Assembly (NCBI GenBank): GCA_001724265.1
Contig: MEDY01000073.1
Span: 121,483-141,482 of the forward strand
DNA from: Rhizaria sp. SCN 62-66
Taxonomy: Eukaryota
DNA length: 20,000 bases
Reading direction: 5' to 3'
Positions 1-19,677 of this stretch are shown here, piece by piece. Position numbers and translations under genes: made by a program. The notes below the pieces were generated by a model. It was given only the letters and a program-made list of their open reading frames with translations. It did not search any database and was not told where the DNA came from. Numbering within the stretch: the first letter of the stretch is position 1; the number at the start of each line of letters is the position of its first letter.

Positions 1-3000
1 CTGCCATACGTCCTTAGCCAGCTCCATGCGGCGCTGGAAAGGGCGGTCCATGTGGCTGGCGTCATGCGTCCCGTCGGCGTCGGCCAGCGACTGGTTCGGC
101 ATCAGCGATGCCGCCGCAATGAGGCGCGACGCGTACGCGCGGTGAAACGCGGCCAGACGCGGCGCCATGGCGGACGGCGGCGTATCCTCAACGTCGTCGA
201 AGGACGCGCTAGGGCCGTGGCCCTGATGCACGCCACGCATGTGCTCGAACAGCTTCGCCTGGCGACGCGAGCGGTGGAAGCGCAGCGTCCAGTCACCGTT
301 GTAGCAGTACGCCTGCGGGCCCTCCTGCAGCTCAGACGCTGGCAGCGGGCCGCCGATGCCGCCGGGACCGGAGCCCACAGAGCCGAGCAGGTGGTGCGCA
401 GCGCCAGGGGCGCCGGGCTGGCCGGGGGCGCCGGGCTGCTGACCGTCCTTGCCCTGCTGCGCGGCATCCTTGCCCTGTTGGGCGGCGGCATCTTTGCCGT
501 CTTTGCCCTTGCCATCCTTATTGTCAGCAGCGGCGGCGCCAGTGGCGGGCGCGTCAGCCAACTCGTCGAGGTTGTCGATACCGTTAAGCGCATTAGCGGC
601 GGCCTCGGCCAGCGCGGCCTGCTTAGCGCGCTCCTCGGCGCGGCGGCGCTGCTTGGCGCGCGTGGCGTAGAGCTGCTTCACTGAGCCGACCAGCGCGGCC
701 TCGAAGCTCTGGAAGAAGCTGAGGCGCACGGCGTAGCGCAGGTGCGACACACCGAGCTTGGCAAGGTACTCTTCGAGTCCAAGGCGCGCGTACAGCGTCG
801 CCATCGACTCGTGCAGCGGCGTGCGGAGCTTGACACCCATCACGGTCGCGATCTGCGCCGGCAGCCCGTCATCGGGCGACGCGTGCGGTGCAGCGCTCGA
901 GCCGGGCGTCGCAATCGACGCCAGCGACGGCCGTCCGCTTTGCGCGCTGGACGCCGCGGGCGCAGCCTCGGGGGCGGCGGGAGTGGCGGGCGTCACGGGG
1001 GCTGCAGCGGACTTGCTGCGGCCCTTGCTGTTCTCACGGCCGTCCTTGCTCTCGTCGCCGAGCTTGCCCGACGTGGCAGCGCCGCGGCCGCGGCCCTTGT
1101 CCGAGCTGCCGGTGCGCTCGTCAGCGAGGTTGCGCGTCGTGCCCGTGCGGCGGCCGTGCGTGACGACATCAGGACCACGGTCCTTTCTACTCTTGCTGCC
1201 ACTGGCGCCAGAGTTGTTGACGGCGGCGGCGAAGCCCTCGGGGCGCGCGCAGAACTCGCTAGCAATGAGGTCGTCGACGTTGCGCTGGGTGATGTCCATC
1301 ATCTCGCGCACGACGAACTCGACGGCGTTGACGATGACTTGCGTGTGGGAGTCCAGGCGACGGCCAGCGAAGAGCGCTAGCGTGCGCTTGTCGAGCAGGA
1401 AGAGACGGCGTAGCAACATGTGGTTCACAGTCGACTGCAACGTCTTGCGCGATTCAGAGTCGGCGTTGTTGTTAGTATTGTTTCCGCGGTTGTTGCCCGC
1501 CGTCGCGCGCTGCACTTCCGCGTTGGCGCCACTGCCGGGCGGCCCCTGGTCGGAGCGCGCAGCGGCCTGCTGCGCAGTGACGGTAGACAGGTGCTTGGCA
1601 AAGGCCAGAATCGCGGGGAAATCCTTGGCGGCCTTGGCGATGACAGCAGTGGGCAGCACAGACCACGCGGCGGAGTGCTTAAGGTCGTGCTTGGCCGACT
1701 GCGCGAGACCGAGGCGCGCGACGGCAGAGCGCGAGTGCGTGCCCGACCGATCGTCCTCTTCGTCGCTCTCGTCCGAGTCCTCCAGCACGACGGTCGACGA
1801 CCAGTCGCGCCAGATCTGGTCCAGGTACTCGCTGCGCAGCGCGTGGCTCCACCCGGACTGCACGTCCTCGTCCAGACCGACCCAGTTGGTCGCCGTCACA
1901 CCGGGCGCCAGCGGCGCCAACGGAGATGTCGCAGACGCCAGACGCTTGAACGGGCAGCCACCGGACCCCATCGCGACGCCCTCGCTCGCCGCAGCGGCCG
2001 CAGCCGCCGCGGGGGCGGAGGGCGCCGCGTCGCGACCGAGCTTCTTGGTGCCAAGACCGGGAGACAGCGGCGTGGCGGACACGTTCGCGGCGGATGCACT
2101 CGCGGCGGGAGGCGCGTCGTCGGCCTCGACGGGCGCAACGCGGCGCTCGGGCGACAGCGCGCGCGCGACGACGCTGCCCGACGCGAGCGTCGCGTGCACC
2201 GTCGTCAGCGCGGGGCCCGCGCCGCCGAGGCCCGCGGGCGCGAGAAGGGGTGCCGACGCAGCGATCGTCGCGGCGATTGCGGCCACGGGCGCGGTGCCCA
2301 ACAGCGCCGCGCGCGCCTTCGCGAGCTGGCGCACTCGGGACGACAACGACGAAGACGACGCAGACGCCGCACTAGGGGCAGCGCCGAGCTTGCCGCCCAG
2401 CAGCGCCGCATCCAGGTGAGCGAGGTTCGCAGACACGGTGCCGGTGCCGCTGTGCAGCGCAGTGAGGAGACGCGAGCGCTGCTGCGCCAGCGGTGTTGCA
2501 GCCGCGGGCGTGGCGGTCTCGTCGGGGACGTTGGGCGTGGCTTCACCAGCTAGGGACTCGACGGCGGTCGCATTGCCACCGGCCGCGGCAGTCGCAGCGG
2601 CTGCAGCCGCGTTGGCGGCGTGCGAGCCGAGCACGACAACCGCGGCCATGATGTGTGGCGGCAGCGCGTTGGTGGGCACTCTCGCGGACATGTCGCACGC
2701 CAGCGCCGAGGCGGGCGTCGTGGCGTGTGAGGAGCGCGAGTGTGCTGACTTGAGCATCGTCGCAAAAGACGCCGCCCCGCCAGCCGGAGGAGAGCTCGAC
2801 AAGCGGCTGATGCTGTTGGCGTGCGAGCTAGCGCTGGTGAAGGAACTGTTCGAGTCTTGGCGGTGGAACGCGGAGCCGGTGCCGATGTCCACGGTGCCGA
2901 AGCCAATGCGCGCGCCGCCGATTGGCAGCGCCATGTCATCCGTGGTCGTCGCCACGCCGCCCGCGCTGGACCCGGCCGCGGCGCCGGAACGCGAACGGAT

Positions 3001-6000
3001 CTCGGGCCGCGCAGAGTTGGAGCGCCCGACGACGGGGCCCGCGACGGGCACGCGGCCCATCGCAGCGTCATTCTGCGCCGCGGCGGCGGCCGCCTGCGAG
3101 CAGGCCGCGGAGGACGCCGCGAGTGTGTTGGCAGCGATGATCGAGGCGCACGCGAAGCGGTTGCCCACGAGCGGGTCGGCAACGGAGGACAGCGCGAGGG
3201 AAGCAAAGACGTCGAGGTCCACTGCTGTGTCGGCCACGGGGCACACACCACCCACGTCGGCCTCAGTGTCGTCCGTCTGACGCGGGCCCTTATCCGCGCC
3301 GGCACCCGTCGTCGCAGAGGCACTGGGGCCCACGGGCGGGCGCGGTACGTTGGCACCAGTCAGCGTCGCCGCGGGGCGGCCCAGAGTCCCAGGCCCGTCG
3401 CGCGCAACGAATGGGCACTTGCCGGCAGGCATCGCGTTCCGGCCACCAGCAGCGGCAGTCGCGGCGCCGATGCCCGCGGCAGACGCGGCGGCGGCGACAG
3501 CAGCGGCGTTGGCGGCGGCGTTGACGCCATTGGCAGTCGCGCCGCCCTTGACCAGCGCCGTGTTGATGCCCGCAAGTGCGCTGTCGGCGCCATTCTGCGC
3601 GGTGACGTGGCCGGGCAGCGTGACGGGCGAGTGGCGCAGCGCGGTGGCTGCGCCCTCGCGCATGCACGCGCAGACATAGACGAGCGCCTGCAGCCAAGCA
3701 TCGGCCACACGCGGACCCACGTGTTCGCGGCTATGGTTGATCGAGTCTCCGGGATGCGACGACGTCAGCGACGAGTGCGAATGCTGGGGCGAGTGGGGCG
3801 CGCCAACGACAGTCGCGTCGCACGCCAACTGCTCGGAGCCCATGCGTGACAGCGGCGGCGTCGGGTTCACAGTGCCACTGGTGAAGCGGCCGACGCTGAC
3901 GTTGCCCTGCACAGCCACAGATGCGGACGGCATCTGCGCAGCACAGATCACCGCAGCAGAGGCTGCCGCCGCAGCAGCAGACTCACGCAGAGTGGCGTCG
4001 CCACCGGACATCGCAATCTTCTGCATAAATGGGCCAAACGGGAGCATGTAGGCCGTGCGACGGCTGTTGATGTCAGCAACGGAGGGATCAATCCAGTCAT
4101 CACCCATTGCGAACTGCAGCAAGCACAACATGACAAATGCGAGGCCGGCAAACGTGTCCGACTGTACGCGGTAATACACAGCGTGGCGACCACCGCACTG
4201 CTCCAGCGCCGACACGCGGCGGCGGTCCAGCACGGAGAGCGCGTCATCGCCGGGCGCCGTGTGTGCGAGCGCGGCAAGGTAGTCCTGGGACTGACGCGCG
4301 AGATGCGCCTGGCGCGTGTGCGCGGCAAGCGGCAGCGAGAAGGTCTGCGCGACGAGCACTGCCGCGGCCTCGCAGTGCTGCACCTGGTCCACGTTCTGCA
4401 TCAGCAGACGCGACTCAGGGTGGATGGCGTAGAAGGAGCGGAAGATGATCTCGCTGCGGGTCAGCGCGCGCAATGCACGGCTCCAAGTCGCGCGCAGCTG
4501 CACGACGACGTCGTCGTTGGGCGCGACGGGAGGGCGCGCAATGAGCTCCTGCAGGATCGCGGGCGAGATCACCCACGCGCGCGACGCGGCCGCGGAGGCA
4601 GTCGTCGACGTGCCGCTCATCACGTGAAGCAGCGGGATCCCGCTGTCGGAGCGCACGGGCGGCAGCAACAGCGGCGGTGCGACAAACGCGCTGCGGCCGT
4701 GGCGCTGCTGCGCGCCCGCGTGGTCACGATCAGCGCCGCGCGCGTCCTGACCGGGCGCGACGCCCGTGGAACCCATGGCGAGCGTGAGCGTGACGCGTGA
4801 CGAGTGCGCGATGCGTGCCATGACGGCGCCCAGGAAGCCGTGCAGGAACTGCATCGCACCCGTGGGGCCGCGGCCGATGATATTGACCAGCGGCGCCGGG
4901 AGCGGCCGGGACACCAGCGCACCGGACTCGGCCCACTGCGAGGCCAGTGAACCTGCCGTGCCGGAGTAGACCATGTCGGTGAGCTGCTCCGAGAGACGCG
5001 TCTGCGTGGCGGAGATGCCAGCGCTGGCGCCGCGGCTCTGCGGAGCGGACTGTCCACGCACCTCGAGGTGTGCGAGCGCGACGGCCTCCATGTAGGCCAG
5101 GAAGACCTTGTCGAGCATGTCGGTGGATAGTCCGGCTGAGAGCAGCACGCGCACGCTGCGCACGAAGTCAGCCTGAATGCGGCGCTGCGCCAGCACCGAG
5201 GGAGTCAGGCGCTGCGTCATTGCGGCGACGGCGGCCGCGGTGTCGGCCTCGGTGATGTTGGGCTTCGAGCCTGGGGTCGGCGTCGCACTGGGTCCGGAGA
5301 TGTTCTGCGACGCCGCGTCGAAGGCGTCGTGGCCGGCAGCGTAGAGAGGGTTAAGCGTCGCCGCCGCGAACAGCGACGAGAGGTCAAAGAGACTGCGCAC
5401 GTGGCACTGCGACGAAGGCGCGACCGAGGGCTGACCGGAGGCAGCAACGGACGCAGCAGTAGCCTGTGCGCTAATCTGCGCGAGCAAGCTGTAAAGACGC
5501 ACAATCTTGTACACCATGTTGCGGTGGTTCGTCGGGCGTAGACGCGGGTCGCGCGCCTGCGGGACCTTGTGGCCCGCGCGCGACACGCCCGCCGCCGACA
5601 TGGCTTCCGCAGCAGCGCCGTGGATGCGGTCGAGGCCTTCAGAGTAGTCGCAGAGCTGCGTGGCAACGCGGGGCGAGCGCGCGGCGAGCGTCGTGTAGAC
5701 GCGGTCCTCGAACGGCACACCAGGCCGCGTGCGCTGCGAGTGCAGCAAAGCCTGCGCAGTCGCCAGCGACTCGGCGGAGCCCATCGCGGGCGGCATCACG
5801 AAGGTCGCGGGACGCGACGGTGCCGTCGTCGGCGGCTGCGACAGCACAATCGTGTCGTCAACGTCCACCGCCTGCATCGCGACGGGGCAGCCGGCGGCCG
5901 CGGCGTGCAGCCGCAGCGTATCGAGGCTCACAGTGGCGGCGAGCAGCGCAGGCGGCAGCGGGTGCGGCACCGACAGCGTGCGGCCAGTTTCAGCGATCGT

Positions 6001-9000
6001 GATCGTGCGCGGGGCCGAGGGCGCGGGCACAGCAGCGGTCGCCTCAGCAGCCGCAGCCGCGGCGGCCGTAGCACTGGGCGCGGGGCCCGTTGTCGCGGTC
6101 GCGGTCTGCACGCCGGAGAGGATGTTGGCGAGCTGGGGGAAGTCGGGGCGCGAATCGTAGCCATCGGACGCGGCCGCGGCGGCGTCAGCAAGAACCTTGG
6201 CGCTGTAGCGCGCACGCGGCGACGCGATGTCCTTGTCCGACCCGAAGGCAGGTTTGGTACGGCCGACGCTGGCAGTGACGCTGACGTCGCAGGGCGTGAG
6301 GGGCGACGCAAGCACAGTCATCGGCAGGTGCCAGCAGGGCTGCGTGCGGATCTTGCGCGCATTGGACTGCGAGGGCCGGCCGAAGGGCGTCTCGCGCAGC
6401 GTGCAGCCGGGCGGAGTCACGTAGGCAGCGGAGTTGGGGATCGAGACCCCAGGACCGTCCCACATGACCTCGCCGCGGGCCAGAGCAACTTGTGCCGACG
6501 CCGCGTAGCGCGCTGACGCACGGCGCGCGCGCAGCCACATCTCCTGCTCGGTGCGTACGGATGAGTTTACGACGGCGCGCACAGCAAAGCTGCCGTGCGT
6601 GCTCTCGGCGGCGTCGGGCGCGGCGGCCTTGGACAGCGCGAGGCGGTCCGACGCCGCGTATGACGTCGCAAAGTCGTCCAACCCGGCGCCGTAGAGGTGC
6701 TGCGCGCGCAGCAGCGCGAGAACGTCGGAGTCGGGAATCATCCCCGTCGCCAACGACACCACTCCGGGCGTCGGGACAACGCCGCTGTTGCTGCGGCCGC
6801 GCGAGGCGTGACTACTGGTCTCGTAACTCTGTCCGATGCCGCCAATGCTGCCGCTGCGGCTGCGACGCGTGCCCGCGGGCAGCGCAGACGAACCTGAAGC
6901 GGCGTCGCGCTGCAGCGGGAAGCCGTAGGGGTTGAAGGTGTAGGTCTCGTAAGGGTTCTTGCGCGCAGCAGGAAGCGTGGACGCAACCGTGTGAATGTAC
7001 ATGTTGAGGCCGTCACTCGCAGCAAGCTCGCGCTGCAGCGCTGCGTCCTCACCAGCGGCCTCTGCAGCAGCGGCAGACATCGACGGCTCGTTATTGTCAA
7101 CGCCACCCATCAGCGGCGGAAGCGCAAGTGTGGAGCTACCGATACCGTTCGCGATCGCAGTGGTGGCGTTGCCTCCGCTACGGCGGCGCGAGTCGTTCGC
7201 TGAGGCCTGGATGCAGCCCAGCACGAGACGCATGCGCGGCAGCGTGAGCGGGCCCAGCGGTGCGAGTGCCTGGCGCCCATTGAGCGCCTCGTCCTCAAGC
7301 AGCGCCGCCTCGATGGGCAAGTCGTTGCCAATGGCGTTGAGGCGCTTGCCCAGACCGCCGAGTCCCTGTGGCACGTCGCGCAGCTTCGGCAGGTTGGCGA
7401 AGGCGTCAGTGAGCGTGTTGAGGTGGCGGCGGCGCTGCGCGTAGTACAGATGCAGCTGCGGGCGCCACTGCTCTGGAGGCAGGGACAGCGGCATTGACAC
7501 AGGGAACAACAGCGAAGAGGCGTGTGGGTTGCTCGCGGCCGTGAAGGATGGCAGCGGGCGCGCGTAGCCACCCGTGGTGACGGCCGTGGCATCGGGCGAC
7601 GTGGCCGGCACGAGTGTGGTCATCTTGACCGACGTCAGCGCGATAGTCGCCAGCGCCGACGCCAGCGTCATAGATGCAGAATTGGCACCGCCCGTGCCGT
7701 TGCGCGTGCTGTGGCGCGGCATCGCCGACATTTGCGACGCAGCTAGCGCTGACGCGGCGGCGCCCGACTCGCTGGCGGATGTGGAGCCGACTCTAGGAGC
7801 AACGCTCTCGTCAGCAGCACCCGCGGCGGCGGCAGCGACGGCGCGGCACGTGGTCTCGTTGGCGACGTCGATAAGCGGCACGGCGGCGTGGTCGGCGAGG
7901 TAGCTGAGCAGCGGGAACATGTCCGCGTACACGCCGACGATGCCGATGGAGCGGCAGTGCACGAGCACGGGCGAGCCGTCGTGCAGCAGGTATGACACGT
8001 CGATGCCCGAGGCCACCGTGACGTCCACCAGGAGCTCTCTGCCGCGGGAGATGTCAATCTGGCCGGGGTGGTACAATAGCAGCGGCACGCCGCGGTCGCG
8101 CACGGTCGCCGCGACGCTATTGGTCACGCCCTGTGTGAGCGGCAGCGCCGACAGGAACGCTGACAGTGAGTCGATGTCCGTGAAGGGGCAGCCGTCGGCC
8201 GAAACACGCGGTCCGTCGTCCACGCCGCCCGCGGGAGCGGCGGGCGTGTCCTGGTGCAGCTGCGCCGCCGAAGCGGGACCGTTGGAGCTCATGCCCGTGT
8301 GCGGCGTGCGCATGCCATGCGCGGCTGGCGCAGTCCCCGCGGTGCCAGGACCGGCGGCGAGGTCGACGCCGGAACGCGAGACCGAGAGCGAGCCGTCGGC
8401 GCGCACCAGCACGGGACCCGATGGCGTACCGCGCTCTGATTTGCGCGAGTGGCCCAAGAAGGTGCGCTCGGCGCGGTCGGCGCGCAGCACGGCGTCAGTC
8501 AGCGTCGCAGGTTCGAACGACGCGCGGTGCGGCGGGTCGTACCACGAGCGGCCCGGTAGCGCCGTGATCTGCTGGTGGTGCGCGATGACCGTGGACGAGG
8601 GCGGGCCCAGCGCGCAGATCTGCAGCCGGCCGCAGAGGCTCCAGCCGACGAGCGGGACGTCAACGAAGGGCGCTGCGGGGCTGCTGCCCAGCGCGCCGGG
8701 CGGCATGTCGGGCGGGTACGCCACGCGCGGCAGGTGCGGCAGGCGCTGTTCGTTCAGCAACGGCATGCGCGGCGCGCGCGTCACACTTGGCGCGGACAAC
8801 GCTGTGGAGGACGGCAGACTGGCGAGCACGGCGTCGGGGATCTGGGAGTGTCCGTGGCGTCCGCTGCGGCGCCCGCTGCGGTGGCTGCGGCGGCCGTTGC
8901 TGTCGTCAGCCTTGGCGTCAACGACGGCCGCGGACGTGTTCGCAGCGGTCGCGTTATTGGCATCGTCTTCCTCTGCGTCGCTGTCGTCTACGTCGCGGTC

Positions 9001-12000
9001 GCATTGCGAGCCTGAGCCACAAGCGCGCGCGGCGGCGGCAGCGGCCTCGGGCGTGTCCTCCGCGCTGAGCGCCGCGCTGTGGCGCAGCCCGACGCCACCG
9101 GAGCCAAGGTTGTAGAGGCCGGAGCCCGAGGCAGCAAGCGCGACGGGCGGCAGCGAGGACCACGACCACAAGGGTGCGGGAATAACGAGATCCGGGCGCA
9201 GCAAGCGAGGGGAGCCGGGCGCGCCGTCGACGAACGGCGACGGCTGCGGCACCAGCGCGGCAGCCGCGGCGTGGATCGAGACGTCGGCCGAGAAGGCCGC
9301 GTTGGGCAGGTACATGCGCAGCGGGTGGCGCATGGCGTGCGCGGCACCGAGCAGCAGCCCGCCGCGCGCGACGAAGCTGTGCGCGCGACGCCGGCCCTCG
9401 GCAACGACGTCGGAAAGCCAGGTAGCGAGCCACAGCCACGAAGCCTGCACGTCGCGCGACCAGATCATGTCGCGCGCGTCGGCGTCCACCGACAGCGCCT
9501 CGTCGCCCTTGGCAGCGGCAGCGACCGCGCTCGAGGCGCCGGCACCCGGAGCGCTGGCGGAGCCAATGCGGAAGCCGGAGCTGAGCGTGGGCGACGTGGT
9601 GGGCGAGCCTGAGGCGGAGGAGAAGCCCGACAGACCAGCGCCGTGCGCGCCGCGGCGGGTGCGACCCGGCGCGGCGGTGGGCGCGGGTGCGGCGGCGGTG
9701 GGGCGAGTGGAAGCGCGGTAGGCAGCGACGGAGGGCATGATGCCGGCGAGCAGCGCGACGTTAGGCGAGTGCGAGTGCGAGAGCGAGAGCAGCCACAACA
9801 GGGACGAGAGCACTGGCGAGGAGCGCGCGAACACGGCGGCGGGCACGCACGGGTCGATGAGTGCGGGCGACTGGCGCTGTGCCGCGGTGAGCGTGAGCGA
9901 CTCGGCCGCGGTCGCGCGGGGGTCCGCGTTGGGGCCGCCCGGGGAGCCGGACGGGGAAGCGGACGCAGTGGCGGCGGCGGCTGCGGCGGCCACTGCGGCA
10001 TCGACAGCCGAGGTGGTGCTCAGGCGGCGCGGTGGCGCGGGCGTCTTGCTGGCCTCCTTGGCGGCGGTGACGGCGCGCTGCGCGGCGGCCTGGATCTCGG
10101 GGTCGTGGTACTCGGGCAGTGCGGGCGGCGCGGGCGGCAGCGCGGCCGAATCGAAGACCGTCGTGGTGGGGGTGTAGGACAGGATCGTGCTGAGGAGCGT
10201 AGAGCCAGTGAGCGGGGTGTGCACTTCGGCCGCGGGGTGCAAAGAGAACTGCGCGAACGACCACTCCTCGATGGCGCGGTACAGCGCCGAAAAGAAGGCC
10301 GGCGGTACCGCGGTAGCCACGGCGAGCACGGTGTACGCGTGCGACATGGCCGCGAAGAAGCCGTCAGGGTCCTGCGCCGTCGCGAAGGGGAACGGACGCG
10401 TGTAGTAGCCGCTGTGCGCGCCCTTGGAGCCGGAGGCGGAGCGGTGGCGTCCGCTGCTGATGCGCGACACTGACGGCTGGTGCAGCGGCTGTCCACCGTG
10501 CGCGTGCGAGTGCGCGGGCGCGGAGCTAGGGGACGAGCCTGCGACGTCGGCCGCGGTGCGGTGGACGATGAAGGGCGCGGGCAGGTGCGCGAGGATGAGG
10601 CGCACGGCGAGCTCCATCACCGGCGACGCCTGCAGCAGCGGCTTCGCGGGCGGCGCGGGTGGCGGCGGCAGCGGGGTATCCCCAAGCGCCGCGGCAGGCG
10701 CCGGCGCGGGCTCAGCCGCGGGCGCTGCGGCGGCCACGGCGGCCGGGTACGTGTTTGCGAGCGCGGTCAGCAGCGTGGACAGCGAGGCGGCGGCGGCCTC
10801 ACCGGCGCGCGTCCAGCTCGCGGGGGCAGCGCTGTTGGCCGGCGCGCGGAAGAGCGAGTTGGGCCCCGAGGTGGCGACGCTGTCGAAGCCACCGGACGCG
10901 GGCAGCACCATTACGATGGGCTTGGTGCCGGCGACAAGCGCGGACGACGCGTTGCGCAGTGCGAGAGCGACGCGGCCACGGATCAGCGGCAGCGCACCTG
11001 AGACGCGGCCCCACAGGTGGAAGAATCCGCGTGACGCGCGCAGCAGTGCTGTGCGGTAACCTAACGTGTCACGCTCGGACTCAGACACCATGGCCGAGAG
11101 CGGGAAAGAGGGCAGCATCGTGATGAGCGAGTTGTCGGGCACGCCGCGGTTGAGCGCGGGTAGCGTCAGCAGCACGCGGCGTGGGTTGAACGCGTCCAGC
11201 ACGCCCAGCGGGCGCGGCGTCACGAAGGGCGCCGAGGGGCCCAGTCCGGCGGCCGCGAGCAGCGCGCTCGACTGCTCGCTGAGCATGAGAGCTCTACCGC
11301 CCGCGGGCGGCGAGCGGCCCGCCATGCCAGGCACCAGGAGCGTCAGCGCGCCCACAGCATGCGAGGGCGGGGAGCTGGTGACGTTGGCGTACTGCTGTAG
11401 CAGAGGGCGCGCCTGCGGGGACATCGGCGGCCGGCCGTGGGCGCCGCGGCGGCCCGAGTGCGGGGAGCGGCCGTACGCGCGCGACGACAGCGGCATCTGG
11501 GGGCCGCCCATTCCGTCACCGTGGCCGTGCCGGAAGCCGCGCGCCGAGAGCACCTGTCCGAAGGCGAGCGAGCCGGGCGTGGAGCCGAACGCGAGCGCGA
11601 TGGGCGAGTCCTCGGGCCGCAGCAGGCGGTTGTGGTGACGGTGCGAGCGGCGCGCGGACAGCACGCCGACCATATTGGGCTCGTTCGCTGCGGCTGCTGC
11701 CAGCGCGGGCGAGCCCATGGTGGCAAGCAGCTCGCGGCGGAGGACCTCGGGCGCCTCAGAGCCAGGGTGCAGACGGCCCTGGACGGGATTGTACTGGCCG
11801 TTGCTGAGCAGCGAGGCCGTAATCGCAGAGGCCTCCTGCATGCCCAAAGAGCCGCGAAGCAGCATGTCCATCGGCGGCTCGAACGGGCCAGTGAGTGCGG
11901 CCGGCGTCAGAGCGGGGAGCTCGGACAGGAACGGGCACTGCGCGTCGGTCGAGGCAAGCAGAGACAGAGAAACAAGCGATGCGACACCGCGCATCGTGTC

Positions 12001-15000
12001 GGCGCGGAGGCGCGCACGGCGGATGCTCGCGTCAACGTTACCCGTGCCCGCGCCACCGGCGGCAGCGCCAGCAGTAGGAGCCGCGGGGCTCTTGATCACG
12101 GCGTTAGGCGCGGCCTGCGTGGAGGCGTTGTTGCCCACAGTGCGCGCGAGCAGCGAGCCGGCCGTGGCCGTGTCGGGGTGCGTGCTCTTGTACGCAATCT
12201 CGTCCGCGGCCGCAATGGTCGTCGTGGTCGGCACGAGCAGCGCCCAGGCGCCGGACTCGACGGGTGCTGGCAGGTCAAGCTGCGCACCAATCAAGTGCGC
12301 GAACATGAGCCACGACGCGCGCACCTCGGGCGTGAAGGTCAGGCCCAGCGCGTTGGCTACGGCCGAGTTCAGCGAGGTGATGGCCGTCCGCCACTGCGAG
12401 ACGTCGCCACCGTTAGACACGAGGCGCGCGCGCAGAGCAGTCAGCACCGTCGCTGCTGCACGTGCGTGCGCGGGGAAGCGCACGGGCATCAGAATGCCCT
12501 CGACGTGAGCAACTAGGGCCGTCACAGTCTGCGCAAGCCACAGCGTCGTGGTCTGCAGCAGCGATGACGACTGGAGGAAATCCCAGTGCGATTTCATCGA
12601 TGTGTCGCCGTTCTCCTTGAACTTGGCCACGGCGTCGTGCGCGACTGCGCGGATGACCTTAGCCCACTCTTTAGCGAAGTCGCCGAGGCGGTCCGCGCCC
12701 GCGGCGGGCAGCTCGTGCAGCTTGTTTCGGTTGCCCGGCGCGCCGACATGGCGCGCGTTGGTGCCCAGCGGCGGCGAGCGGTTCGCTGCGCTGATCTCGA
12801 TCTGCGAGCCCATCGCACCGACGCCGCGCTTAAGCGTGAGGTGATGGCCGTTCTCGCCGCCGTCGTCGTCGCCAAAGCCAAAGCCGCGCGGCGGACGCAG
12901 ACCCATGTCCATGTAGCGCGCGTTGAGCTCGTGGCCCAGTCCTACGCCCTCGGTGTTGTCTGCATCCTCGTCGCCGGTAGACTTGTTGCCCGCGTTGTCG
13001 GCGTCGCTGCCGGTGCGCAGACGCAGATCCTTCGCGTTGAAGCCAGCGGTCGAGCTCGGAGCCGCGGCCTCATCACCTTCCTCGAGCACCTCGACGGTAA
13101 CGCCGGAGCGCGTACGCGCGTGACCAAGGCCGTCAGGTGGCATCAGCGTCTGCTCGTCCATGAGGAAGGCGGGCAGCTGGCCGGGGCGTGAGTCGACGCC
13201 GACGTCGCAGCCGGTGATGTTGGCCCACGAGCGCTTGAGCATGATCATGCGCTGGCCGTGCTGCAGCACGGCGTCGTGGTTGATCGCGCCCTCCTGCGCC
13301 AGCACGCGCGCCGCGTCGGACAGCGTCTTGAGCGAGCCCGCGACGGGGCGCGTCCAGTTATCACCCAGCACGGCGCGGCAGGCACATGCAAAGGCCGCCG
13401 AGAGCGTTGCCAGAGTGTCGCGGCACGACGCCATCGTGATGCGCGAAACGGCCGCGGCGGGGTCGGCGTTGCGCGCGCGGCTGCGGCTCACGGCCGAACG
13501 TGTCCCGCGGGCGCCGCCGTGGTGGCTGCTGCCCATGCGCCGGTTGCGCACGCTGTGCGTCGCAGAGACGCGGCTGCGACGGGAGCCGCGCGCGGCGCCG
13601 CCGTTGCCCCAGGCGCCACCAGCGCGCGCATTCGAGTCGTCGGAGCCGTCAGAGTCCGCATCGTCGTCGCTGAGGGGCGCGTCAGAGTCTTCGTCCTCGT
13701 CCTCGTCTTCGTCGTCGTATTCGCCGTCGTCGAAGTCGAGGTGGCCGCCCGCGGCGTCACCGTCAAGCCCGTCAGCAACGCCCACAAGCATCTCCTCAAC
13801 TGAAAAGCCGACGGTGAGCCCGGCCGAGGTTAGCGGCGCGCTCGTGTCCATGCTAGGGTCGTGATCCAAGTCGATGCCGAAGTCGCCCAGAAAGTGCGCT
13901 TTGAGCGCCATCAGGTCAACGTCGTCGGGCAGCCCGACGCCCGAGGCCGCAGCGCTGGCGGCGGCGGCAGCACCCTTGGCGCCTAGCACCGTGCGCAGCA
14001 TGACCATGCTGAGGTGCGCGGGCGAGGTCCCCGCGGGCACGGCCGATCCGTCGATGATGCCGTTGCGTCCGCTGGCCTGAGCGAGATCTTGTGAACCGGT
14101 CAGGATGGCCAGCTTGGCACCGAGCGCGCGCCACATGGAGCAGAGCTCGGGCGGCAGTACGTCGCCGTGTAGCGACGCCGCGACGAAGGGCGTCGCGTGG
14201 CGCGTGGCGAGGTAGTGCGCGTCGAGGCTGTGCAGGCGCGCCGTGGCCGCGCGCGGGGGCGGCAGGAATGGCAGCCCCGAGACTGGGAGCGTGCACGGAG
14301 GCTCGAACGGCGCCGGGTCGCGCATCACCTGCGGCTGCGGCGCGTCGCCGTCGCGCATTGAGGCCTTGGCCACGCGGTCGCGCTCGGCCGCGGCGAGGCG
14401 CTCCTTCTCCTGGTGCTGTTCCATGAGCGCGCGCAGCTCCGCCGCCTGGCGCTGCTCCATATCGGAGCGAATCTCTTGCAGCCCGGTAAACAGCGCGTCG
14501 ACGCGGATGATTGACTCGACCGTGGGCGCGGCGCGGGACTCGCCGACGGGCCCGGTGCCCGCGTTGGTGGGCGAGCCGGGCGCAGCCTGGCCCGTGGACT
14601 TAAAGGCGCCGAGCATGTCCATGACCTTGCTGGCGTCACGCGGGCGCGGCGAGCCAATGCCACCTGCGGAGGTGGCCGCGGCGACGACGCGGTCGAGCGC
14701 GTCGCCGGAGCGGTGCGCGGCAAGCCAGGCCACTGTAGCGTGCGCAGCCTTAAGGTATAGCCGCTGCACGTGCCAGATCGGGTCTGCCTCATCGTCGAGA
14801 GCGTCGAGCAGCATCAGCTCGCCGATCACGATCGCGGCCTCGGGCGCCGCGCGAGTCGCGTCGGGCTCGGTGCCCACCGCGGCGGCGCGCTGCGAGCGGG
14901 CCAGCGCCGCCGCGGCCGCGTCCGTGGCCTTGCCGGTGACCGAGGCGACGTGGCCCGCGGCGCGCGCGGCGGCGGTCATGGCCGCGGCGACGACCTGGTC

Positions 15001-16134
15001 GAGGCGAAGCGGGATCGCGGCCGCCAGCCCGAGCCCCGCGTTGGCGTTGCTGTCGGCGGCCGCGAGCGCGGTGGCGGCCGCGGTGGGCGAGCTCAGCGAG
15101 AACGCGCCCGCGCCCTCAGAGGGCGAGCGCGGCGCTGCGTCGGCGGCCGACAGCGGCGGCTGCGAGAAGTCAGCAGTTGGCGACCCGGGGCCCTGCAGCG
15201 GCAGCGGACCCGGCGCGCCAGTGGGCGAGAAAGGCTGCTGGCCCGCAGCCGAGCTGAGCGCGCTGGCGGCGACGGTGGCGACGGCCGTGGCCAAGGGCAC
15301 CTCGCGGACGACGAAGCCTGCGCCGCCCGCGGCCGAGACCGCAGAGTGCCCCGCAGCGGCGGCGTCTGAGCTGGACAGCAGCGCGCGCGCAAGCACTTCG
15401 GGTACGGACAGGCGCAGGCTGTCGTAGGAGGCCAGGGTGAGCGGGCCCAGCTGCGTCGCCATGACCGACGCCGCCGCGGCGGACGCGCCCACGGTCTTGC
15501 TCGCGACGGCGCCCGTCGCGCCCGCGCCGCCTGCCGGGCCCGCGGCAACGGCGGCGCTGCTAGAGCTGGTGAAGGCGGAGGTCGACGCGGCGGCGGCGGC
15601 GGCGCGGGCCGCGGCGAGCGCTTGCGCGTTGGCGGCGGCCGAGGGGAAGAGGCGGCAAGTGTTGGTCACGGCCTTGAACGCGTTGTAGGCGGCGCGGAAG
15701 GCGGCGACGAAGGCAAGCCTGCGGTCGAGAAGCGCAGTCCACGCGTGTGCCATGTGCGCCACGGCCACAGGGTCGTGGAACGGATGCGTGCTGCCCACAC
15801 CGTCGTTGAGGCTCTGCACGGCCGCGGCGGCCGCGGCGGCGGCATCGGCGGCCGCCTTGGCCTGATGCGCCTGCGCCTGCGCCTGCGCGCGCCGCGCCAT
15901 CTCGGGCGACGACAGGCTCGCGGCTGAAGGCACGAACAGAGTTGCAGCCGCGCCAGGGGTCGGCACAACGGCGGCCGCGGCGGCGTCCTTGGCGGGCGCC
16001 TGCGCGACGAGCGCAAGCGCAGCATCAGTCGCCGCGGGCTGGGTCGGGGAGCCGCCCGGAGGCGAGCCGCTGGGCGCCGCCGCGGGGGCGGTCGCGGCGG
16101 ACGCGGTCGCGGGCAGCGCGGCGGGTGAGGCAAG
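1..16134 (-). CDS. Exon 4, part after the TAG: 5,378 open codons running off the window edge
   Basis: Stop-free frame in register with the upstream part, with the same codon usage and several globin-like motifs. Missing from the ORF track because it has no stop inside the window. Confidence 0.88.
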
Positions 16135-16754
16135 CTACGGCGCGTCCGGGTCGAGCGCAAGCCCGACGGCCGTCGCGGCGCCCGCGGCCTTGGCGGCGCC
16201 GACGGGGCCCGAGGCCACGATGGCGGGCGCGGCCGCGGCGTCGGGGCCCGCCCTGCGCGGCGTGAACACGATCGGGCCCGCGGGTGAGGTCTCAACGCCA
16301 GACGCGGCGGCGGCGGCGGCGGCCGCGGCGGCGGTGCGAGCGGCGCCGCGGGCGCCCTGCGCGGCTACGGCGGCCTCGCGCGGAGACATGCCCGACGCCG
16401 CGGCGGCCGACAATACAAGCCGCAAACTCGTCGAGTGCCCGGGCGACAGGCTGCCGTTAGTCCCGCTGGCGCCGCGCGAGAGCATCGGCGTCGCGGGGTT
16501 GGTCTCGGTACCCGCAGCGGCGGCGGCGGCGGCGGCGGCGGCCTCGTCCTCGGCGTCAAAACCGTCGAGCACTGCCGCGAGCGTGATGTCGAGCGCCTCG
16601 CCGACCCAGAAGAGCAGCCGCGTCCACGCCTCCTCGCACTCAGGCGTCCACACCGCGGTGGCGGCCACCGCGGGTGCAGCGCCAGCGCCGGCGCCGGGCG
16701 GGGCGGGCGCGATACGGCGGGCCGAGTGCGGGGGCGCCACGGCCGCCGCGCCGC

Positions 16755-16787
<33 letters not shown>

Positions 16788-18336
16788 GGGCGAGGACACG
16801 GCGCGCCGAGAGCATGTTGCTGCTGGAGCCGGCGGTCGAGCCGGGCCCCACACCGGCGGCCGCGGGGGTGACCAGCTCGATCGCCTCGTCGGGCTCGTCC
16901 GAGATCACCACCACGCGCTTCTTCTCGCTGCTCGCGGCGTCGCCGCCGGCGCCGGCAGACTGGGCGGCGTACTTTGCGCCCCCGCCCGTGACGGTCGGCG
17001 CAGGCGCCGTGGCGGGGGCGGGCGCGGGCGCGGCGGCGCGGCGCGAACGTGAAGGCCCGAAGCACGAGCAGCAGTCGCCGTCGTCGTCGTCGTCGGGGTT
17101 CGCGGTAGCGGCGAGCTTCTTGCTGTTCTTGCCCTCCTTGCCGTCCTTGGCGTCCTTGCTGCTGCCGGCCGCGCCGCTCTTGTCACCGGCTGCGGCGGCG
17201 GAGGCGGCGGCCTTGGCGGTGGCGCCGGCTGCAGAGGCCGGGGGCTTGGCAACGTTGCGGCGCGGGCTGGGCATCACGGTGCGGCCCGTCAGCATGTCGC
17301 CGTCCTCGTCGTCGGTGCCGGCGCCGCTGCGGTGGTCGTCGTCATCGTTGTCTTCGTTGCAGTTGTCGGGCAGCGAGGGGAGCGCCGCGGGCGTAGCGTT
17401 GCCGCTGGCCGTGAAGGGCACCACGGCGTCAGGGTCCGCCGTGGGCGAGAAAGCACCCGCAGCGGGCGTGCCGCCGGCCCCGTCGGCGGGCTCGGCCCAG
17501 GCCGAGGGCGCGGCGGCTGCGTGCGCGTCGGCTGCAGTGAGCCGCAGCCACTCGTCCTTGATCACAGAGCCCGCGAGGGTCATCAGCGGGATGCAGAAGT
17601 CGTCGCCCACCGAGGCCTCGGCAAGGCGGTAGCCAACATCTTGAATCTGCGAGGGGGGACGCAGGGCGACACGGCGTCGCAAGTGAGGTGAGCGCAGTAA
17701 GAATGGAGCGAAGAGAGTTAGGAGGAGCAAAAGAAAACAAGACGGGGGTGTCAAGAGGAGAGATAGAGGCGTACCTGTTCACTGATGTTAGCGGGGTTGT
17801 CAATGTTCTTGATAGAGACACTGATAATGTCGACAAAGTCACCGACAATAGTCTACAAGGCGCATAGGAAGAGTGTTAAAGAGGGATTATGTGAGAGTTT
17901 AGGTGAGCTTATCAAGAAACGGCCGACAGAGCATGTTATGACCACTCTCAAGCAACGCGCAATCACGGGACCAAATGCGTGCGGGTACGTACCTCGTGCT
18001 GGTCACTAGGAGCGCGGTCAGCAAGACTACTGTTCTCAGGGAGGAGAAGCTGCGCAGGGTGGGGTAAGGAGCAAGTCACGTGAAGAAATGGTTAGCGTTC
18101 GGGAGGTGCGGACAGGTGCAGTACGGTTGAGCAAAGATACATAAGGAGAGGGATATATAGAAAATGAGCGTTTATAACGCATATTTTGATCTCATGACAT
18201 TTGACGATGCAGAACCTCTGTACGCGATGCAAAAGAGGAGACGTACCTTTTTAAGCAGCTGCTCTTTGAGAGTAGAGGTGTTGTGCTGAATTCGAGCCCA
18301 AGTACCCGTCACCAGGTGCTTGTTCGGCAAAGCCAT
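1..18336 (-). CDS. Giant multi-globin-domain protein, 3'-truncated by the window edge. Exons 18336-18247, 18049-17993, 17852-17775, 17646-<1; at least 5,957 codons with one in-frame TAG at 16135-16137
   Basis: I read the minus frame whose codons sit at + positions 1 mod 3 and found no TAA/TAG/TGA between 16134 and 1. The ORF track also lists no terminated ORF in this frame there. The long + strand ORFs starting at 2 mod 3 are its wobble-aligned shadows. The spliced N-terminus reads MALPNKHLVTGTWARIQHNTSTLKEQLLKK/LLLPENSSLADRAPSDQHE/TIVGDFVDIISVSIKNIDNPANISEQ/IQDVGYRLAEASVGDDF, a coherent globin-like A-F helix pattern. Globin motifs recur downstream. Confidence 0.85.
100..1830 (-). other. Globin domain with Phe CD1, His E7 and His F8, split by insertions (within the giant CDS)
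   Basis: A-like YLDQIWRDWSSTV; B/C/CD LLRRLFLLDKRTLALF (Phe 1369-1371); E helix LDSHTQVIVNAVEFVVREM (His 1345-1347); F-G LEEYLAKLGVSHLRYAVRLSFFQSFEAALVGSVKQL (His 742-744); possible H helix PRLAAFHRAYASRLIAAASL near 100-160. Confidence 0.78.
3652..4518 (-). other. Globin domain with distal and proximal His retained (within the giant CDS)
   Basis: A helix VVVQLRATWSRAL; B/C SEIIFRSFYAIHPESRLLM; E helix DQVQH (His 4375-4377); F-G SALEQCGGRHAVYYRVQSDTFAGLAFVMLCLLQFAMGDDW (His F8 4183-4185); after an insertion of about 120 aa, H helix VGPRVADAWLQALVYVCACMREGA. Confidence 0.8.
9394..11060 (-). other. Degenerate, expanded globin-like domain
   Basis: H-helix-like IWSRDVQASWLWLATWLSDVVAEG (9394-9465); EF-G-like QDPDGFFAAMSHAY...AVPPAFFSALYRAIEEW (10261-10374); weak A-like ALLRASRGFFHLWGRV (about 11000-11050). 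Confidence 0.5.
12277..13251 (-). other. Degenerate globin-like domain, probably not heme-binding
   Basis: A-like RMIMLKRSWANI (13216-13251); F-like VLTALRARLVSNGG with Leu at the expected His F8; clear G-H segment WRTAITSLNSAVANALGLTFTPEVRASWLMFAHLIGAQL. Confidence 0.65.
13285..15775 (-). other. Degenerate, heavily expanded globin-like domain
   Basis: A-B-CD-like AVAHMAHAWTALLDRRLAFVAAFRAAY...CRLFP (15643-15770); F-like LMALKAHFLGDFGI (about 13875-13915); G-H-like LSAAFACACRAVLGDNWTRPVAGSLKTLSDAARVLAQEGA. It may represent more than one domain. Confidence 0.5.
16135..17646 (-). CDS. Exon 4, part up to the in-frame TAG (a 578-aa product if TAG terminates)
   Basis: Acceptor TCGCAG|ATT at 17647/17646; matches most of track ORF 16135..17754. 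Contains F/G-like 'IQDVGYRLAEASVGDDFCIPL' and H-helix-like 'VWTPECEEAWTRLLFWVGEAL'. Confidence 0.8.
16756..16785 (-). repeat. (CAG)10 microsatellite encoding poly-Gln
   Basis: Ten perfect ctg triplets on the + strand, in frame as Q10. Confidence 0.95.
17647..17774 (-). other. Spliceosomal intron 3 (128 nt, phase 0)
   Basis: GTACGC...CCTAAC...CCCCCCTCGCAG; pyrimidine-rich. Confidence 0.78.
17775..17852 (-). CDS. Exon 3 of the giant gene (26 codons, TIVGDFVDIISVSIKNIDNPANISEQ)
   Basis: Acceptor CCTTGTAG|, donor CAG|GTACGC; encodes a globin E-helix/EF-like segment ('IKNIDNP' resembles the common 'VKNLDDP'). Confidence 0.78.
17853..17992 (-). other. Spliceosomal intron 2 (140 nt, phase 0)
   Basis: GTACGT...TTTAAC...CCTTGTAG. 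Confidence 0.72.
17993..18049 (-). CDS. Exon 2 of the giant gene (19 codons, LLLPENSSLADRAPSDQHE)
   Basis: Acceptor GCGCAG| with a GCTAAC branch-like motif about 40 nt upstream (18091-18096); donor GAG|GTACGT; keeps the frame. Confidence 0.7.
18050..18246 (-). other. Spliceosomal intron 1 (197 nt, phase 0)
   Basis: GTACGT...GCTAAC...GCAG; lower GC, pyrimidine-rich on the coding strand. Confidence 0.72.
18247..18336 (-). CDS. Exon 1 of the giant gene (30 codons, MALPNKHLVTGTWARIQHNTSTLKEQLLKK)
   Basis: ATG at 18336-18334; ends AAG|GTACGT; encodes the globin A-helix-like segment 'HLVTGTWARI'. Confidence 0.8.
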
Positions 18337-18598
18337 TGTAAAATGGTGTAATTCAAACTTCTTTTTATACGAAAATGGTAGTCGTTTATCTACGTATAAT
18401 TTGTAGGACGAAAGAGAACTTTCGCAAACAAACTTCCTGACGCAGTCCCCTGCGGTGCCGCCTCGCCCCACAGTCCTCGTATCGCGACCGAAAATGTATT
18501 AAAATTCGAATACCAACACCAAATCATTTATATATTGAGTTGATTTCAGGGTATTATTTTTTAGCAGTATATATATACATTCTGTACTTTTGTGTCGG
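18337..18598. promoter_or_regulatory. Putative bidirectional promoter and 5' UTRs (262 bp between divergent ATGs)
   Basis: AT-rich spacer between head-to-head start codons, with TA-rich tracts at about 18527-18536 and 18568-18578 and a central GC-rich patch at about 18440-18490. Confidence 0.6.
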
Positions 18599-19677
18599 AT
18601 GTCTAGACGTCATATCACCGTCATTAAGCGGCAGCAGCCGCCGTCACACATCCCAGCCCCTTCATCCGCTCCCCAGATTGGACTTGGTTCTGTGTCACAT
18701 AGGGTACGTCAATAGATGTATGCAACGTTCAGCGACTTAGCCACTAGTATTTATAGTTGTAATTTATGTAATATTGTCTAAGCTCTTTCGTTTTCATCTT
18801 CTATTTCGTTATTCGTGTTCAGGTTCTTGCAGTAACAGTCGCGTCTGCCGCGTCCCACAACGCAAGGCTCCAGCGCGATGCCCCCATTCACTCTCCCGCT
18901 GACAGCGTCGCTCGTCAGTCAACCGTCCCTTCTAGGGCAGTCCCCCGTCCGCGCTCGCAGCCCTCACCCTTGCTTGCGACGTCGCACGCCGGCCGTGCGC
19001 TAGCATCCCTGTTTGTGCCCGCCACGGTAAACGCCGCCCCCGCACGCGCTGCCCCTGCAGCGCCGACCGCGCCGGCCTACACCCCGGACCGCATCGCGCT
19101 TGCGCGCGAGCTCAACGCGTCCCGCCGCGCCGCGTCGTTCGCTGCCCGTGCCGCCGGCGCCGCGCCGGAGGACGGCGGCTGGGTCGCGGCGGCGCCCGTG
19201 ACAGCCGCGGCGGCCGGCCCAGAGGCAGCGGCCGGCGCTGCGGCCGCGGCCGGCGGTGAGGACGAGGAGAACGGCCGCGGCGATGTCGGCGCCAGCGACG
19301 ACGGTGGCGACAGTTCGACGAGTGGCAGTAGTGGCGAAGATAGCGCTGGCAGCGGCAGCGACAGCGATGGCCATCGGCGCCGGCGTCACAGGAGCAGTGG
19401 TAGCGAAAGCAGCAGCAGTCGCCGCCACCGTAGTCGTGACCGCGACCGTGACCGTGACAGTTCCCGCCGCAGCCACAACAACAGCTCTCGGTCGCACAGC
19501 TCGAGCTCATCTCGCCACGAGAAGCGCGACAAGCGGGACAAAAGGAATAGGAAGGACAAGAAGGAGTCTCGGCACCGCAGTGACCGGGACCGCAGTGACC
19601 GTGATCGTAGCCATAGTGAACGGGACCGCAGTGACCGGGACCGTGAGTGTGACCGTGACCGCAGCAAGCGGTGGTGA
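18599..19677 (+). CDS. Two-exon gene (18599-18703, 18823-19677; 319 aa), low-complexity protein with an Arg/Ser/Asp/Lys-rich C-terminus, probably nuclear or splicing-associated
   Basis: ATG 18599; MSRRHITVIKRQQPPSHIPAPSSAPQIGLGSVSHR|GTACGT; pyrimidine tract and TTCAG acceptor at 18822; frame continues VLAVTVASAASHNARLQ into track ORF 18970..19677 and ends at TGA; RD/RS dipeptide repeats and basic NLS-like runs. Confidence 0.8.
18704..18822 (+). other. Spliceosomal intron (119 nt, phase 0)
   Basis: GTACGT donor, AT-rich body, long T/C tract, CAG acceptor. Confidence 0.82.
19575..19666 (+). repeat. Imperfect coding tandem repeat with a unit of about 15 nt (CGCAGTGACCGGGAC, encoding RSDRD)
   Basis: Repeated cgcagtgaccg(g/t)ga(c/t) units; a related GACCGT run lies at about 19432-19458. 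Confidence 0.8.

Follow-up and report, generated by a model that had tools for sequence, protein, structure and literature searches.

A probable giant minus-strand gene in a GC-rich eukaryotic contig with candidate divergent globin-like domains

The window analyzed in this study, a stretch of 20,000 nucleotides from contig MEDY01000073.1 of Rhizaria sp. SCN 62-66, is crossed on its minus strand by a very long reading frame. We consider it fairly probable that this frame belongs to one giant gene, whose product is mostly of low complexity and contains at least four very divergent globin-like domains. A preliminary description, made from the letters of the sequence, had proposed a giant polyglobin-like protein at this place; the idea of one giant gene with several globin-like domains is partly supported by our results. 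The window would hold most of one nuclear gene of a GC-rich eukaryote that occurs in metagenomes from bioreactors and wastewater, with three short 5' exons followed by one exon of more than 17.6 kilobases, and the predicted protein would have at least about 5,950 residues. Over half of it would be low-complexity sequence rich in Ala, Ser, Gly, and Pro, in which the putative globin-like domains D1, D3, D5, D6, and probably D2 are embedded, several of them apparently split by insertions of 100-300 residues.

The long frame and its gene model

The main open frame occupies positions 1..16134 of the minus strand, contains 5,378 codons and no stop, and exits the window. At the base composition of the window (G+C about 70%, dropping to 48% in 18001-19000) the chance spacing of stops is calculated as about 55 codons, and the longest open stretch in all other frames has at most 553 codons. 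The G+C content at the first, second, and third codon positions of the main frame is 0.70, 0.60, and 0.85, respectively; Ala makes up 19.8% of its residues, and stretches rich in Ala, Gly, Ser, Pro, and Thr hold 57% of them. The long minus-strand frame is real. Below, residue p is numbered from the minus-strand codon at 16134, so that its first nucleotide is 16134-3(p-1).

Upstream of the main frame, the gene model comprises three short exons and the first part of a fourth, all on the minus strand. Exon 1 (18247..18336; 30 codons) starts with an ATG at 18336-18334, ends in phase 0 at a GTACGT donor, and encodes helices A and B of the first globin-like domain, D1. Exon 2 (17993..18049; 19 codons), between an AG acceptor and a GTACGT donor, covers D1 from helix C to early E, and exon 3 (17775..17852; 26 codons), between an AG acceptor and a GTACGC donor, covers the E helix. 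The first part of exon 4 (16138..17646; 503 codons) is in the register of the main frame and encodes helices F and G of D1 and a long Ala-rich insertion, after which an H-helix-like WTPE..AW motif stands at 16656-16615. Intron 1 (18050-18246; 197 nucleotides, G+C 0.47), intron 2 (17853-17992; 140 nucleotides, G+C 0.49), and intron 3 (17647-17774; 128 nucleotides) are all of the form GTACG[TC]..AG, lie in phase 0, and range in G+C content from 0.47 to 0.58. Spliced in this way, D1 aligns with a globin hidden Markov model (HMM) without a break over the three junctions (HMM positions 7-83), a result that favors the proposed introns and the assignment to the globins at the same time. The preliminary description had counted at least 5,957 codons in a single minus-strand frame. 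The 5,378 stop-free codons and the upstream parts stand; the total (30+19+26+503+1+5378 = 5,957) includes, as one codon, an in-frame TAG that went unmentioned there and is discussed below.

Intron 1 of D1 (18246/18247) falls between the residues aligned to positions 31 and 32 of Hmp, which we take to be the B12/B13 boundary, one base off the B12.2 intron position. The B12.2 position is conserved in animal and plant globins. The alignment puts introns 2 and 3 of D1 at E6/E7 and EF/F1. Within the D1 insertion, a run of about ten Gln is encoded by positions 16756-16785, which read as (CTG)10 on the plus strand.

The sequence of the window is present in bioreactor and wastewater metagenome runs, three of which contain more than 90% of the sampled words; habitat labels of runs with only small shares of it were disregarded. 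Forty-one single-base positions at which variant contigs depart from the window were listed, with 41 further ones outside this list. Within the main frame (1-16134), 24 of the 29 listed strain differences are synonymous and 23 of the 29 lie at third codon positions. The synonymous share among all possible single-base changes in this frame is 27%, which gives P = 7e-10 for the observed proportion. The listed differences in this downstream frame are spread over residues 735-3708, and those in residues 1188-1289 of D3 are all synonymous (7/7). The frame downstream of the TAG is under purifying selection and is not decaying.

A variant strain, about 1% different, occurs in runs X4 and X5 of a 2025 study. 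In X4, the stretch 17711-18942 has 11 differences and two one-base gaps; eight of the nine listed substitutions are in introns or upstream, and one is exonic and synonymous. The sole listed difference inside the small exons, at 17790 in exon 3, is synonymous, and both one-base deletions of the 5' region lie outside exons, at 17878 in intron 2 and at 18557 upstream of the ATG. Contigs of X5, a poly-A metatranscriptome, map to eight sites of the gene. None of those listed lies over the introns or the upstream region, and none bridges an intron; since DNA may be present in a poly-A library, these contigs show neither transcription nor splicing.

Globin-like domains

The segments in which the preliminary description had seen globin signatures are referred to here as D1 (18336-16600), D2 (15770-13285), D3 (13250-12280), D4 (11060-9394), D7 (5720-5060, described as weak), D5 (4518-3652), and D6 (1830-100). 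They were compared with a local globin HMM of 144 positions, built from 30 bacterial globin domains (E. coli Hmp and 29 others obtained by a PF00042 search of 401 genomes) and run with all filters off. Global shuffles, shuffles inside blocks of 30 or 40 residues, and reversed sequences served as controls. When the whole frame was scanned, five domain rows resulted, all five within these segments and at positions that fit the helix order: residues 1244-1276 (G to the start of H), 3948-4015 (E-G), 4139-4164 (H), 5102-5159 (E-G), and the WTPE..AW motif of D1 (start of H). The whole protein scored 11.6 bits, reached by none of 600 shuffles (best 4.6; reversed -1.4), and without D6 it scored 4.5 bits, also reached by none of 600. 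Taken singly, D1, D3, D5, and D6 gave helix-ordered matches of 8-16 bits, and for each of them 0 of 400 shuffles reached the score. In the account of the Guillardia theta chimeric proteins (PMC4101818), globins are recognized by a helix-ordered alignment from B/C through G; the order is right in all four domains here, at low scores. Every match is in the normal helix order, with no androglobin-type circular permutation, and the domains lie from hundreds to about 2,500 residues apart.

D6 (664..1413, minus strand) consists of a B-E part at 1413-1294, an insertion of about 150 residues, and an F-G part at 837-664, covering HMM positions 29-67 and 51-108. The F-G part scored 15.1 bits (0/400 shuffles) and the B-E part 2.8 bits, a value reached by 4 of 400; the hhalign P value of the domain is 1.7e-3. 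Pfam Globin (PF00042) was reported solely for the F-G part of D6 and always under the cut-off of 22 bits, at 20.1 bits (E = 9.1e-4; one of ten short pieces) for this part itself and at 19.4 bits (one of eight segments) and 17.2 bits (one of five chunks) for the D6 stretch. When the F-G part was compared by phmmer with the PDB, all 19 matches were to neuroglobin (best E = 0.19), with the proximal His aligned. A 610-residue C-terminal piece matched neuroglobin in 12 of 14 cases, yet its two best matches were unrelated, and a language-model Atlas search with this piece gave no usable match. Just past the G helix of D6, residues 5171-5195 (546-620) form a helix ending in ..NALNGIDNLD.. that matches the E-helix part of the HMM (positions 52-74; 1.9 bits, 0/300 shuffles), and another, partial globin-like unit that runs past the window may begin here.

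In D5 (3640..4533, minus strand), helices B-C at 4455-4375 and E-G at 4296-4090 are followed by an insertion of about 120 residues and by helix H at 3726-3640. The domain scored 8.7 bits, and 10.0 with the distal H helix (0/400 shuffles; reversed -0.9), with three matches in helix order at HMM positions 25-51, 49-112, and 109-137. Its hhalign P value is 2.4e-3, and 2e-4 over 89 columns when the H helix is included and the insertion trimmed. In an Atlas search with D5 (4533-4000), the three top clusters listed all carry PF00042 (score 0.87, 171 of 256 features in common), and the ten best family-bearing matches all agree on Globin; the calibration of the search tool makes such a result a lead and not a proof. 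For D1, the spliced residues 1-130 scored 13.7 bits over HMM positions 7-83 (0/400 shuffles; reversed -1.2), the H motif matches positions 109-122, and the hhalign P value is 7e-4. The six control sequences and all reversed domains except that of D3 give P >= 0.08 in hhalign. The signatures proposed at 18336-16600, 4518-3652, and 1830-100 are supported, D1, D5, and D6 all standing above their shuffled and reversed controls.

D3 is a compact all-helical domain of 152 residues (12259..12714, minus strand), with helices F and G and the start of H at 12447-12307. It scored 8.0 bits over HMM positions 74-120 only, reached by none of 400 shuffles (best 7.0; reversed 2.9). For D2, the claim of a globin at 15770-13285 is supported only for a piece resembling the G helix and the GH corner (13336..13410, minus strand; ..LGDNWT..) and not for the A helix, which was equalled by 145 of 400 shuffles. 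In a Smith-Waterman comparison of 136 segment pairs, this G-H piece paired with the G helix of D5 was the single outlier, at z = 7.9 versus 4.4 for the next pair. With an HMM enriched by the internal domains it scored 4.8 bits at positions 93-117 (0/300 shuffles), and with the bacterial-only HMM 1.6 bits, reached by 1 of 400. The A-C part of D2, the N-terminal part of D6, all of D4 and D7, and the regions of residues 1293-1684, 2276-3471, and 4171-4744 were no better than shuffles, so that the signatures claimed at 11060-9394 (D4) and, weakly, at 5720-5060 (D7) left no signal. The possible further A helix proposed at 1-33 is a very short piece truncated by the edge of the window; a contig of run X1 extends some 7.5 kb past position 1.

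Profiles made from the domains themselves were also compared with the PDB. An alignment of helices F-G-H of D5, D3, and D2, without D6, gave five matches (E >= 0.28), three of them hemoglobins at the G-H position (E about 1) and two Bcl-2-like, which is a hint only. An alignment of the putative A helices gave two matches, one of them on the H helix of hemoglobin beta, and the A-helix assignments are therefore unreliable. A third alignment, made by MAFFT, misaligned D6 with the other domains, and its profile was dropped. Pfam scans of 17649-1 found no Protoglobin, truncated-globin, calpain, cytochrome b5, or reductase family, nor any family of transmitter domains (kinase, MCP, GGDEF, and similar) or FAD/NAD reductases, the fusion partners that mark globin-coupled sensors and flavohemoglobins.

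Putative heme sites and alternative explanations

In the alignment column of Hmp His85, which we take to be F8 in helix numbering, D5 (codon 4185-4183) and D6 (codon 744-742) have His, and D1 and D3 have Leu. In the column of the CD1 Phe, D6 has Phe, D5 Met, and D1 Ala, and D3 is unaligned there. The main frame encodes 38 Cys and six Cys-Pro (CP) dipeptides, four of them followed by Phe and two by Val. Against an expectation of 0.24, the six CP[FV] motifs represent an enrichment, and neither this count nor that of CPF was reached by any of 20,000 shuffles, for a pattern that was picked after the data had been seen. The motifs sit in Gly/Ala-rich linkers on the minus strand: CPF at 11929..11937 (residue 1400), 8182..8190 (residue 2649), 3409..3417 (residue 4240), and 1948..1956 (residue 4727; the B helix of D6 follows about 180 residues later), and CPV at 5881..5889 (residue 3416) and 3235..3243 (residue 4298). 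The preliminary description had spoken of heme-competent and degenerate globins together with CP motifs, and what was found fits this picture: His at F8 in two of the four domains and Leu in the other two, and six CP dipeptides that are all CPF or CPV.

Judged by their F8 residues, D5 and D6 are candidates for heme binding, and D1 and D3 are probably heme-free pseudo-globins; the six linker motifs have the sequence pattern seen in CP motifs with transient heme binding. The product of the giant gene may be a large intracellular scaffold, mostly disordered, that would hold heme in two globin pockets and, transiently, on its CP motifs. Its role might be to buffer heme or to sense heme, gases, or redox state, as suggested by what globin and CP elements do elsewhere. 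We only tentatively entertain the further possibility that an undescribed class of heme-handling megaproteins, of some 6,000 or more residues, is represented here by its first member, with heme-competent globin pockets (D5 and D6), pseudo-globins (D1, D3, and D2), and six CP sites in disordered linkers, serving as sensor or buffer in an unsampled protist lineage; it would also be, by a wide margin, the largest globin-containing protein known.

A number of observations weigh against a giant protein with several globins. The segments were picked after the sequence had been read. The Pfam gathering cut-off of 22 bits is met by no domain scanned (the spliced D1 was outside the scan), the best value being the 20.1 bits of D6, so that the Pfam check proposed in the preliminary description gave sub-threshold support only; D3 and D5 had no Pfam match at all. 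The domain scores of 8-16 bits on a home-made HMM are weak. In phmmer against the PDB, D5 (289 residues) had three matches, none of them a globin, and D3 (324 residues) had none. In hhalign, D3 (P = 0.023) does no better than its own reversed sequence (P = 0.014); of the signature claimed at 13250-12280, the core at 12714-12259 is above the HMM controls and hhalign fails the reversed control. When the other three domains were added to the HMM, they failed to lift the score of the one left out, which went from 16.5 to 18.2 bits for D1, from 8.0 to 6.5 for D3, from 8.7 to 6.3 for D5, and from 15.3 to 13.5 for D6. BLASTP comparison of the protein with itself found identity matches only and no self-similarity among the domains; judging from this and from the leave-one-out scores, the domains are not recent duplicates. 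At CD1, D1 has Ala and D5 apparently Met in place of Phe. The TAG separates D1 from the remaining protein. Finally, no homologue was found for comparison in the databases searched: a word-indexed search with the whole protein among proteins of near length found none, an exhaustive phmmer search with residues 2951-4150 against 1.84 billion representatives gave 0 matches at E <= 0.001, the F-G part of D6 had none at E <= 10 among longer proteins, and two scans of metagenome contigs found no relative. Searches of open-access literature text turned up no account of such a protein.

The structure predictions belong on the same side. AlphaFold2 was run on single sequences because no relatives were found, and its all-helical models of D5 (mean predicted local distance difference test score, pLDDT, 35.6) and D3 (48.0, with six helices) are unreliable. 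The 3/3 globin fold expected in the preliminary description was not confirmed, these models being too poor. Foldseek found nothing for the D3 model at E <= 0.001 (best E = 0.83, TM score about 0.25), and the few globins among 119 weak rows are no evidence. A complex prediction of the D6 halves with heme reached 0.02 against a mark of 0.34 and gives no evidence either way.

Much of this can be read as favoring a view that we consider unlikely, in which only D6, or D6 and D1, is a true globin relic, and the other domains owe their likeness to chance among Ala/Leu-rich amphipathic helices. The protein would then be a low-complexity giant and an orphan, its globin content limited to one or two decayed modules. 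Curated Pfam scans see D6 only, D3 and D5 reach just 8-9 bits, reversed D3 equals D3 in hhalign, self-similarity is undetectable, the leave-one-out models do not help, and the match of the A-helix profile to the H helix of hemoglobin beta makes the motifs ambiguous. Chance likeness is hard to reconcile, however, with the three helix-ordered matches of D5, its aligned proximal His, and the independent Atlas support; with scores of D3 and D5 that 0 of 400 shuffles reach and that fall to 2.9 (D3) and -0.9 (D5) on reversal; and with the profile of D2, D3, and D5, which without D6 matched hemoglobin chains at G-H in three of its five PDB matches (E about 1). That there is no globin relationship whatever, all matches being noise in a helical, compositionally biased orphan, seems to us very improbable. 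It is true that nothing passes the curated cut-offs, that there is no fold evidence, and that residues 2951-4150 have no homologue among the 1.84 billion representatives, but the Pfam HMM, the phmmer search of the PDB (19/19 neuroglobin), and the language-model search converge, the local HMM and hhalign controls agree, and the alignment of D1 is unbroken across three junctions.

The remaining alternative concerns the in-frame TAG (16135..16137, minus strand), which stands between the first part of exon 4 and the main frame. If it is a true stop, the upstream part would encode a 578-residue globin-like protein (D1 and the Ala-rich tail), and the downstream frame would have an internal start or would not be translated whole, or the locus would be a young pseudogene; we regard this as rather doubtful. 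The TAG is covered, with no difference, by DNA contigs of runs X1 (2015) and X3 (2017) from two studies, although X1 may be the source sample of the window, so that X3 alone is independent. An intron removing it was looked for and rejected: of 85 in-frame spanning GT..AG pairs, none has a donor like those of the three introns of the gene. Its use as a sense codon was judged unlikely, TAG being used once against 155 times for CAG, and its absence from the other 5,378 codons of the frame makes an altered genetic code unlikely. What speaks against a true stop is the continuity of the coding signal. The G+C content at third codon positions is 0.80-0.94 on either side of the TAG, in the same frame, versus 0.47-0.58 for the G+C content of the introns and 0.48 for that of 18001-19000, and the downstream frame shows purifying selection, with 24 of 29 differences synonymous over residues 735-3708. 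The TAG could be subject to read-through, could be a strain-specific nonsense allele, or could be the true boundary of two products. On balance, one giant gene with several globin-like domains still appears to us the best explanation.

Several further features of the window were recorded. Residues 2641-2760 (7855-8214) are the most hydrophobic and highest-complexity stretch of the central region and start at a CPF motif. They have no Pfam family and are not globin-like by hhalign. Word- and pattern-based searches, the only ones that covered them (exhaustive phmmer spanned residues 2951-4150), gave no match, and they may form an unrecognised folded domain. On the plus strand lies a divergently oriented neighbor frame (18970-19677), which terminates in TGA and encodes a low-complexity protein of Arg/Ser/Asp repeats with an SR-like tail. 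The stretch of 48% G+C that separates this frame from the ATG at 18336 would serve both as a promoter region. An Rfam scan of the window found no family, and its tandem repeats are minor only.

Comparison with known systems

Globins are among the best-studied protein families, and large protist multi-globin chimeras are barely characterized. If the domains described here bind heme, the range of size and architecture known for globin proteins would be extended several-fold, and heme-competent globins, pseudo-globins, and CP motifs would be combined on one natural chain. This combination makes the idea of scaffold heme buffering or sensing directly testable. If the domains bind no heme, the protein is one more lineage-specific low-complexity giant. 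The case also illustrates how globin domains may diverge and be split by insertions until curated profiles miss them, which matters for the annotation of protists in metagenomes.

The nearest precedent is provided by the chimeric proteins of the cryptomonad Guillardia theta, which according to their description (PMC4101818) have 1,060 and 1,497 residues and three globin domains each, with domain identities of 7-70%, one domain without the H helix, and one globin without the F8 His. The preliminary description had not recognized the architecture as a known one; since such large multi-globin chimeras are already described, it is an extreme variant and not a new kind. Our protein resembles them in coming from a protist and in having several putative 3/3-type globin-like domains of low mutual identity, some of them defective, and atypical intron positions. 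It differs in being four to five times larger, in having no cytochrome b5, which is N-terminal in the Guillardia type, or other Pfam domain found in 17649-1, and in domains that score below the Pfam cut-off, are split by insertions, and are widely spaced by low-complexity sequence.

Many globin domains per chain are also found in the polymeric extracellular hemoglobins of invertebrates, with nine domains in Artemia, at least ten in planorbid snails, and 14-28 in Astartidae and Carditidae (PMC4503718). Those domains are described there as tandem and alignable, with short linkers, in proteins that carry oxygen, whereas in our protein BLASTP self-similarity is absent, two of the four domains have no proximal His, and the linkers dominate. 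Androglobin (PMC13331133) is a protein of about 1,500 residues with a calpain-like protease domain and a circularly permuted globin. Like D5 and D6, its globin is interrupted by an insertion and lies inside a large protein; in contrast to it, our Pfam scans contain no calpain match (E <= 1-10), and the helix order is normal. Among solved sequences, the one nearest to the F-G part of D6 is neuroglobin, which shares the motif LEEYLA.LG..H...V.LS.F with it, the proximal His being aligned. Neuroglobin is a single-domain protein of about 150 residues, and its likeness to D6 spans just about 65 residues (E = 0.19).

CP heme-regulatory motifs, known from HO-2 and other proteins, are Cys-Pro dipeptides, as a rule with a hydrophobic residue next, that lie in flexible regions and bind Fe(III)-heme; those with transient heme binding lie mostly in loops (PMC10377097), and such motifs are treated in PMC2742820 as well. 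The six motifs of our protein agree with this pattern in that Cys-Pro is followed by a hydrophobic residue in flexible Gly/Ala-rich stretches, and they could bind heme. For the strict CPF/CPV form and its combination with globin domains, no description was found in open-access text. Overall, this protein, in which no partner domain was detected, is much larger, more divergent, and more laden with insertions than the known proteins to which it can be compared.

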